Origin: a virus
IMG/VR virus record: IMGVR_UViG_3300044508_000090
Reading direction: 5' to 3' (one strand)
Length of the DNA: 15,658 nucleotides
Part shown: positions 9,420 through 9,441 of the stretch, piece by piece
How the letters are laid out: each line of letters opens with the position of its first letter
How positions within the stretch are numbered: position 1 is the first letter of the stretch
The notes under the pieces: model-generated
Seen by the model: the letters and a program-made list of their open reading frames with translations, nothing else
The model's database searches: none
Told to the model about the DNA's origin: nothing
Made by a program: the position numbers and the translations under genes

Positions 9420-9441
9420 GTGAGGGCAAATTTGCCCTCAC
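9420..9441. promoter_or_regulatory. Perfect 22-bp palindrome GTGAGGGCAAATTTGCCCTCAC, copy 1, ~25 nt upstream of the small membrane protein start
   Basis: Seen directly. No U-tract follows on either strand, so not an intrinsic terminator. A near-identical copy (1 mismatch) lies at 14424-14445 upstream of the P-loop kinase gene. Confidence 0.55.

Follow-up and report, generated by a model that had tools for sequence, protein, structure and literature searches.

Intercistronic hairpins without a U-tract are familiar from the repetitive extragenic palindromes and bacterial interspersed mosaic elements (REP/BIME) of enterobacteria, which occur in hundreds of copies, give differential mRNA stability and go along with RAYT transposases. 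Another U-less hairpin, boxB of the nut sites of lambdoid phages, loads a factor and is made of a 5-bp stem and a GNRA-like pentaloop, with an adjacent boxA; its copies are near-identical within a genome and its stems covary between genomes. In T4-type phages, promoter-early stem-loop (PeSL) cassettes, i.e. repeated sigma70 promoters together with stem-loops, punctuate regions rich in ORFans (Arbiol et al. 2010, PMC2839356; Comeau et al. 2014, PMC4122927), and their stem-loops were proposed to act both as attenuators or terminators and as recombination patches shuffling the cassettes (PMC2839356, PMC4122927). Among mycobacteriophages, Cluster O genomes contain a 17-bp dyad repeat, TGTTCGGNNNCCGAACA, in more than 30 copies each (PMC4351075), while those of Cluster A carry stoperators, a single short site repeated many times in short intra-operon gaps away from promoters, where bound repressor blocks elongation (PMC9283540, PMC6550527). 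The present study deals with a palindromic element that occurs twice in a 15,658-nt stretch of viral DNA (IMG/VR record IMGVR_UViG_3300044508_000090, hereafter the window). We read it, with a probability of about 0.5, as a lineage-specific stem-loop acting on transcripts through punctuation or stability, and possibly doubling as a recombination patch.

Occurrences of the palindromic element

Copy 1 (W1, 9420..9441, minus strand, GTGAGGGCAAATTTGCCCTCAC) was a perfect 22-nt palindrome and extended to 28 nt (9417-9444) with one internal mismatch. Copy 2 (W2, 14424..14445, GTGAGGGCAAATTTGCCCgCAC, reading GTGcGGGCAAATTTGCCCTCAC on the minus strand) differed from it by a single base, T to G at 14442 of the plus strand. 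The repeat pointed out in the original prediction was real and beyond chance: a search of the window with up to three mismatches returned exactly these two matches, and none of 200 dinucleotide shuffles gave even one. Perfect symmetry, announced for both copies, held for copy 1, copy 2 displaying one mismatch. Likewise, the spacing of ~25 nt to a start codon was confirmed for a 77-aa gene (26 nt), whereas that to a P-loop kinase gene was 51 nt instead of ~60, both genes lying on the minus strand. The stretch common to the two copies, in direct orientation, covered 27 nt (9418-9444 versus 14422-14448, 26/27 identical). Read as RNA from either strand, both were predicted to fold into a 9-bp stem with an AAUU loop (-16.9/-21.1 kcal/mol for the two strands of copy 1 and -12.4/-14.7 kcal/mol for those of copy 2, z from -4.2 to -5.6), copy 1 being the strongest U-less hairpin of the window. 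No promoter-like site was predicted within ~300 nt of either copy.

Five further instances were found on four related metagenomic phage contigs (one on each of L090, L091 and L093, two on L092). The sequence family then comprised seven instances, six of them distinct, on five contigs and at four independent loci. All seven were intergenic, and the arms of three of the five further instances differed from those of the window copies. L090 and L091, whose NUDIX hydrolases were 96% and 87% identical to that of the window at the amino acid level, kept the order 119-aa gene, NUDIX gene, palindrome and 77-aa gene. The palindrome of L090 was identical to copy 1; that of L091 read GTGcGGGCAAATTTGCCCTCAC, with A to C at minus-strand position 4, which is the arm and variant of W2. 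The copy 1 locus was syntenic in these three genomes, with no insertion.

Relatives of the 289-aa protein encoded beside copy 2 (~55% aa) occurred on L092, L093 and L126, the last of which ends before the expected palindrome position. Instance L092a (809-840, TAGTC GTGTGGGTAAATTTACCCACAC GACTA) was a perfect 32-nt palindrome, located ~35 nt after the stop codon of the homologous gene and convergent with a reversed 80-aa gene. L092b (core 1372-1393, GTGTGGGTAAATTTACCCACtC), identical to L092a at 30/32 positions of the 32-nt unit, was found 121 nt upstream of the reversed 80-aa gene and 47 nt upstream of the -35 box of a promoter (TTGACA-17-TACAGT) abutting the next gene. The L093 instance (2117-2144, ATC GaGTGGCTAAATTTAGCCACAC GAT) preceded the -35 box of the equivalent promoter by 23 nt. 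Between L092 and L093, the reversed small genes were 63% identical, and they were unrelated to a 57-aa open reading frame (ORF) next to copy 2 of the window. Homology between the window and L092/L093 was limited to the 289-aa gene, which encodes their only common protein, and to promoter repeats. The flanks of W2 and of L092b/L093 were non-homologous on both sides; in sequence comparison, the palindrome is an island between them. In both L092 (1441-1478) and L093 (2165-2202), the promoter following the palindrome ended ~6 nt before the called ATG of a DUF6573 gene (TACAGTCTAAGCATG), which suggests that the mRNA of this gene could be leaderless or nearly so.

L092a and L092b, in direct orientation, bracket a 530-nt segment containing one small reversed gene. 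Such a pair could denote a DNA hairpin or cruciform on which a recombinase, nuclease or transposase acts, or a mere recombination linker at cassette boundaries, without direct role in expression. The non-homologous flanks at W2 and L092b/L093, a recombination-like breakpoint beside copy 1, the absence of G-U pairs and a TnpB-like protein 2.3 kb away in L092 are all in keeping with this proposal. Yet, L093 and L126 contained the same small gene without the left-hand palindrome, no target-site duplications, terminal repeats, Y1/HUH transposase or RAYT were seen, the window is devoid of TnpB, and nothing was inserted at the copy 1 locus in the three syntenic genomes. We consider this explanation improbable. 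An IS200/IS605 or palindrome-associated transposable element (PATE) interpretation of the L092 pair was rejected, since in L093 and L126 the homologous gene is not accompanied by a left hairpin. The TnpB-like protein itself (527 aa, L092 3685-5268, minus strand) displayed a weak Cas12f1-like/TnpB match (PF07282), and no counterpart of it was present in the window.

Scans outside the lineage gave only unrelated sequences, which excludes a host repeat or a widespread phage motif. The flank-anchored pattern TCGTGNGGGYAAATTTRCCCNCAC, which includes the invariant TC flank, had no match in GTDB (one genome for each of 185,579 bacterial and archaeal species), and the element is accordingly absent from these cellular genomes. 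In IMG/VR, the 18-mer GTGAGGGCAAATTTGCCC had one match, unrelated and coding, and the degenerate pattern GTGNGGNNAAATTTNNCCNCAC had 32, all unrelated. Among JGI metagenome contigs, GTGAGGGCAAATTTGCCC occurred at 34 loci, all unrelated by blastn and tblastx and most of them encoding the peptide GEGKFA; two (L053 and L059) were ordinary terminators in which the identical 22-mer is accompanied by an A-tract and a T-tract. A 34-nt blastn search against GenBank phages returned weak chance matches only. Synteny anchored on the kinase gene was equally negative, as 48 IMG/VR loci and two relatives at 72% (L086) and 59% aa had neither the palindrome nor common neighbours. Because the closest kinase relative (72% aa) lacks the palindrome upstream, the element is not tied to the kinase gene.

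Symmetry of the element and its possible roles

The seven instances (six distinct) were aligned in the orientation of the forward genes. Over a dyad of 14 pairs, 79.8% of the cells were paired, versus 71.5 ± 2.5 in shuffled alignments (0/500 reached the observed value). Four pairs had changed on both sides: -3/+3 (A-T and G-C), 4/19 (A-T and T-A), 7/16 (G-C and C-G) and 8/15 (C-G and T-A). The covariation score was 0.219 as against 0.106 ± 0.039 after shuffling (1/500), slid partners giving 0.06 at most, and one-sided changes of the G-U type were absent from the alignment. RNAalifold returned a 9-bp stem (-15.6 kcal/mol). Invariant positions were TC at -2/-1, G1, G3, G5, G6, the AAATTT centre, C17, C18, C20, C22 and A at +2, and broken pairs were confined to the outer stem (2/21, 4/19 and -1/+1). 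Judged from its retention in relatives, with four arm positions altered on both sides, the element is under selection. A right-flank G mirroring the invariant left TC was seen in 2/6 distinct sequences, and the same A to C variant of the 5' arm appeared at two different loci (W2 and L091). With respect to the forward genes, these flank and variant asymmetries point the same way, which hints at a strand-specific use.

The predicted hairpin was GC-rich at every instance, with a stem of 9 bp (14 bp in L092a) and energies from -12.4 to -24.9 kcal/mol. A stable hairpin of this kind in intergenic DNA could be an ordinary intrinsic (Rho-independent) terminator, possibly a bidirectional one. The identical 22-mer is a true A-tract/T-tract terminator in the unrelated L053 and L059, and UAUUUGUG directly follows L092a. 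Yet, the 12 nt past the stem contained one to five T on either strand, with no run of four or more in 7/7 instances, though the same phages use canonical terminators (13107-13137 in the window, 6811-6841 in L092). The consensus terminator scan did not list the window copies. Moreover, a terminator at copy 1 would sever the 77-aa gene from its only visible promoter. Since the U-tract is lacking, simple intrinsic termination is disfavoured, to the point of being very improbable; the original prediction had already set terminators aside on the same grounds, and this holds for both copies and both strands.

The reading that we prefer is that of a stem-loop in the transcript. As the early, mostly leftward, transcription units are read, the element would fold into a GC-rich stem of 9-14 bp with an AAUU loop. 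Lacking a U-tract, it would not by itself release RNA polymerase efficiently; it may rather punctuate the polycistronic RNA, either as a site of pausing or attenuation or, which we find more likely, by stopping 3' exonucleases and setting a boundary for processing. The cistrons on either side would in this way obtain different RNA levels, i.e. the NUDIX gene versus the 77-aa gene at copy 1, and the 289-aa gene with its spacer versus the kinase gene at copy 2. A perfect dyad without G-U pairs would fold equally well in transcripts of either strand, which fits the use of the element at tandem, convergent and divergent junctions. Near-identity within a genome, combined with two-sided changes between genomes, may reflect concerted evolution by recombination or recognition by a phage factor. 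Finally, a location between non-homologous modules could provide a small patch of homology for cassette exchange, in the manner of T4-type PeSL stem-loops. The sequence family with its conservation, covariation and intergenic placement, and the lack of a U-tract, of promoters at the window copies and of matches in cellular genomes, are observations; we infer that the selected structure is an RNA hairpin, and likewise what this hairpin does.

The original prediction had instead put forward an operator, bound by a helix-turn-helix (HTH) dimer and serving a regulator shared by two genes. More broadly, a dimeric protein of phage or host might bind the element as DNA, be it as an operator, a stoperator-type roadblock or a dispersed dyad site. 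One protein would then read all copies, and drift of its specificity would change both half-sites together between phages. Dyad symmetry is indeed kept through two-sided changes and perfect through the centre, G1, G3, G5, G6 and AAATTT are invariant, changes of the G-U type are missing, and copies are near-identical in each genome and different between genomes. W2, L092b and L093 occupy divergent regions, if the reversed small ORFs are real, and in three genomes the palindrome occurs ~40-600 nt downstream of the 289-aa CxxC gene, the product of which is a possible binder. Mycobacteriophages offer precedents (PMC4351075, PMC9283540). On the other hand, no HTH or other DNA-binding domain was recognized in the 20 proteins of the window, ~16 kb of a probably much larger genome, and half-sites were not enriched in the window (6 with at most one mismatch versus 3.1 ± 1.5 expected). 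The window copies have no promoter, and the distance to the next promoter differs elsewhere (23 versus 47 nt). One copy is situated between convergent genes and another 7 nt past a stop codon. Symmetry over 28 nt involves positions hardly contacted by a dimer, and four two-sided changes in three close relatives would require repeated specificity changes; on sequence grounds, symmetry through the centre and out to a pair 26 nt apart exceeds the demand of recognition helices.

Two-sided changes that keep the symmetry over up to 28 nt and through the centre, a mid-operon site, variable promoter distance and occurrence at tandem, convergent and divergent junctions make a classical operator unlikely and favour a nucleic-acid hairpin. 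The original interpretation was at best supported in part. The shared-regulator operator upstream of two genes was not upheld, copy 1 being mid-operon and the copies of relatives being convergent or at variable distance from a promoter, and we hold a dimer site in general to be unlikely, though worth keeping in sight. As for the suggested association with gene starts, all seven instances are intergenic and none of gene, promoter or start codon is a constant companion. The processing or stability hairpin, which had been mentioned as the RNA counterpart of the operator, fits the data better as a putative function. Readings as sigma54, CRP or LexA-like sites were rejected because of unfit spacing (judged by eye).

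An RNA hairpin could also be read by a specific phage protein, either as a nut/boxB-like site loading an antiterminator or as the site of a translational or processing factor, so that the genes downstream (membrane protein, kinase) would be activated jointly and at a defined moment. Such a role would suit hairpins that are near-identical and few in each genome, lie within early transcripts, have a conserved loop, stems covarying between phages and no U-tract, and share one orientation relative to transcription. However, no boxA-like common flank extends beyond 3+2 nt, the AAUU loop, within an A-U rich top of the stem, differs from a GNRA-like pentaloop, N-like or Q-like proteins were not found, no downstream terminators to be overridden were predicted, and the copies L092b and L093 stand upstream, not downstream, of a promoter. 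This makes a factor-read hairpin doubtful. A more specific and equally speculative version is that a dedicated phage factor recognizes the hairpin and acts at every copy, with the helical 289-aa CxxC protein as candidate. This factor would time the expression of the downstream cassette or catalyse hairpin-targeted cassette exchange. The 289-aa gene is the only gene conserved beside the element, in three otherwise mosaic genomes. If true, large phages would possess a system made of a protein and a hairpin, serving modular shuffling or regulation, of a kind not described so far.

Several points weigh against a transcript stem-loop. Hairpin formation and any effect on RNA are deduced from sequence, and a dimeric DNA-binding protein co-evolving with its sites would also yield symmetry-preserving changes. 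Copies are nearly identical within a genome, which pure structural selection does not require, and the invariant AAATTT loop or centre, together with the four G positions, suggests sequence-specific recognition. The outer pairs 2/21, 4/19 and -1/+1 are often broken, leaving an always-paired core of just 4-7 bp. The centre, too, is a palindrome, a property that is superfluous in a hairpin loop (~1/16 by chance). The kinase and 77-aa genes have no visible promoter of their own, a problem if the hairpin attenuates. The evidence from orientation amounts to three or four independent loci, and that for recombination to one breakpoint and one set of non-homologous flanks.

The two loci and other features of the window

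At the copy 1 locus, the NUDIX hydrolase gene (9449..9958, minus strand; PF00293, E=2e-8), taken from the ORF listing, is followed by the 77-aa gene (9160..9393, minus strand, ATG at 9393), which encodes a small membrane protein with two helices and a weak TM2 match (E=0.62). The NUDIX stop codon (9449-9451) precedes copy 1 by 7 nt in the direction of transcription, a proximity within a promoter-to-gene string that the original prediction had missed, and the 26 nt separating copy 1 from ATG 9393 include a Shine-Dalgarno (SD) sequence, AAGGAG. The nearest upstream sigma70-type promoter (10563..10591, minus strand, TTGACA-17-TATTCT, D1 repeat family) lies ~1.1 kb away, and the unit runs from this promoter (10591) through the 63-aa, 119-aa and NUDIX genes to copy 1 and the 77-aa gene, with no terminator-like site predicted between promoter and copy 1. 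This is a typical position for an intercistronic hairpin. Window and L091 were 84.3% identical over 1315 nt. A 69-nt block (9415..9483, minus strand), made of the last 34 nt of the NUDIX gene, the spacer, copy 1 and 5 nt, displayed a single mismatch to L091, while the 47 nt just upstream were 32% divergent. So sudden a change is suggestive of a recombination tract or of a longer element under constraint.

The copy 2 locus comprises the 3' part of the 289-aa gene (14849..15658, minus strand), which runs off the window end and was seen at full length in contig L002, a 403-nt spacer devoid of minus-strand ORFs (14446..14848), copy 2, and the P-loop kinase gene (13608..14372, minus strand, AAA_33/Zeta_toxin-like), whose ATG (14372) follows 51 nt after the copy. 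The 289-aa protein, all-helical and containing a CxxC motif, matched nothing in Pfam, PHROG or PDB, and relatives of it were missing from IMG/VR and GTDB; its AlphaFold2 model (pLDDT 48) was too poor for a fold search. In the absence of a family or PDB match and with so poor a model, its identification as a DNA binder or small terminase was dropped. The spacer, non-coding over ~403 nt and overlooked in the original prediction, was strongly structured (z = -3.3 over a 488-nt stretch) and without homology to its counterpart in L092/L093. Directly 3' of the 289-aa stop codon, a possible RNA structure of 130 nt (14731-14860, minus strand) is closed by GUACUCCCGU...ACGGGAGUAC. Just after copy 2 (~14378-14416, minus strand), a 10-bp hairpin pairs the kinase SD, AAAGGAGAUGAG, with CUCAUCUUUU, and translation of the kinase may be gated by this predicted structure.

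Copy 2 also precedes a doubtful plus-strand ORF of 57 aa (14472..14645; SD GGAGGAGG), the ATG of which is 26 nt away, another feature previously missed. It was called by the gene caller, with a codon score of +0.077 bits per codon, the best of six frames but weak, and had no homologue among 1.84 billion representatives. Its position equals that of the reversed 80/84-aa genes in L092/L093, with no homology. An organizing principle in which both copies, inverted, stand 26 nt before a start codon was rejected, given the missing homologue and the weak codon score of this ORF; the inverted orientation is also contradicted by the flank and variant asymmetries, both copies being direct on the minus strand.

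A repeated family of consensus sigma70 promoters of ~75 nt, with 67-100% identity (TTGACA-17-TATTAT with TGn), was recorded at 7948-13478, and is the predicted driver of the minus-strand genes. At least eight copies have their -35 boxes on the minus strand (13460, 12781, 12224, 11437, 10591, 9089, 8384 and 8004) and three on the plus strand (8061, 11523 and 11903); further members occurred in relatives (L090 1-30 and 1770-1800, L092 6729-6770, L086 ~935-985). The repeat consists of an AT-rich stretch, AAAAGTGATTGACA, a conserved GATACACA/GATATACA, TGcTATTAT, an SD sequence and a start codon. L091 homology to the window stops exactly within such a promoter element, after AAAAGTGAT, which suggests a promoter-mediated cassette exchange.

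Other repeats and putative RNAs were noted. Short repeats AGGGTTCTTCGAA(AA), with three tandem copies at 5907-5949, and GTGTTCCAAAGG are distributed over 4354-6200, around the start of the minus-strand dNMP-kinase-like gene, and were also found upstream of the 289-aa gene past the window end (L002 1-80); they could be a second class of promoters or of regulator sites. Between 6000 and 7000, ~1 kb of GC-rich DNA without convincing gene is filled with about 12 repeats that contain GTGCCA/TGGCAC, with G-runs (ACCCGGGGGAGGGGTGGGGG, three copies) and with a direct repeat of 33 nt (6126-6158 and 6249-6281). It is reminiscent of an origin or iteron region, or else of clustered structured RNAs. On the plus strand, 8056-8261 and 11898-12101 each display a consensus promoter followed by ~200 nt of related (70-84%), GC-rich and palindrome-rich sequence without ORF; these may be two paralogous small RNAs, in antisense or convergent arrangement to the minus-strand units. 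On the minus strand, 13107-13460 is composed of a consensus promoter (-35 at 13460), ~320 nt without credible ORF and a strong bidirectional terminator (13107-13137). Part of it, especially 13269-13365, gave a weak Rfam match to YrlA, a Y RNA-like family (28.5 bits versus a gathering score of 69; E=0.012 over the whole window, 3e-4 over a 401-nt stretch). The stretch holds a perfect tRNA T-arm (GCGGGTTCGAATCCCGC), and ARAGORN found no tRNA in the region. It is a candidate tRNA-like or Y-RNA-like non-coding RNA, in a phage also encoding a vault-like protein, an RNA ligase, a phosphoesterase and a NUDIX hydrolase.

The window corresponds to a whole JGI metagenome contig and represents ~16 kb of a probably far larger genome; Logan contigs from the same phage reached 1.5 and 3.1 kb only. 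It had zero nucleotide matches to GenBank phages. A vault-like protein of 848 aa (122-2668, plus strand), with a Major Vault Protein shoulder (E=1e-24) and vault repeat domains, has its only phage relatives (40% aa) in the 'uncultured phage' records LR756500/1/3, which measure 462-735 kb; phage-encoded vault-like proteins are unusual. Other products were an RLIG1-like RNA ligase, a phosphoesterase, a dNMP-kinase-like protein, the NUDIX hydrolase and the P-loop kinase. Most genes from ~5.2 kb onward are carried by the minus strand, and the palindrome region is composed of small genes without homologues. The source phage and its relatives form a small, uncultured group of phages that are probably very large, with no T4-like affiliation visible as far as can be seen. 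This lineage, with almost no database relatives, carries an unusual RNA-centred gene set composed of the vault-like protein, the RNA ligase, the NUDIX hydrolase and the tRNA-like or Y-RNA-like RNA candidate.

Comparison with known systems

REP/BIME are host elements, whereas the motif described here had no match in 185,579 genomes. The 5-bp stem, GNRA-like pentaloop and adjacent boxA of boxB were not encountered either. Stoperators illustrate that a mid-operon DNA site can regulate; yet, they are asymmetric sites of 13-14 bp bound by a monomer, in contrast to the symmetric 22-28 bp dyad of the window and its relatives, for which no repressor was found and where the asymmetry, limited to flanks of one orientation, is weak. 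The Cluster O repeat is closer in several respects: a short inverted repeat with an A/T-rich centre, dispersed, with arms invariant within a genome. It differs by its 7-bp arms and by the location of about one third of its copies inside genes, as opposed to arms of 9-14 bp, exclusively intergenic positions and covariation between relatives.

Lineage-specific dispersed intergenic stem-loops are among the few regulatory or architectural signals visible in the ORFan-rich variable regions of large phages. A merely stabilizing hairpin would be ordinary, and the interest comes mainly from a nearly unknown lineage and from an element that seems to mark mosaic junctions. If the proposed role is correct, transcription units and mosaic junctions of uncultured huge phages could be mapped by means of the element.

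Resemblance to PeSLs was observed at several levels, i.e. lineage-specific repeated intergenic elements, regions of small ORFans, consensus sigma70 promoters and stable GC-rich stem-loops, and the repeated promoter family closely resembles the promoter part of T4-type cassettes. The succession of stem-loop, AT-rich stretch, sigma70 promoter and next gene was encountered in L092b and L093 only. In the window, stem-loops stand alone, with no promoter within 300 nt, and the repeated promoters have no stem-loop, so that no single element of ~100 bp joins a stem-loop to a sigma70 early promoter. Because the two parts are adjacent just in L092b and L093, the window copies were not filed as PeSLs. 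A further difference is the single conserved sequence with its invariant AAATTT centre, as compared with the variable polyG/polyC hairpin of PeSLs. Should the element punctuate transcripts or guide cassette exchange, the PeSL idea would extend beyond T4-like phages; the PeSL cassette, and specifically its stem-loop part, is the closest known analogue among described systems.

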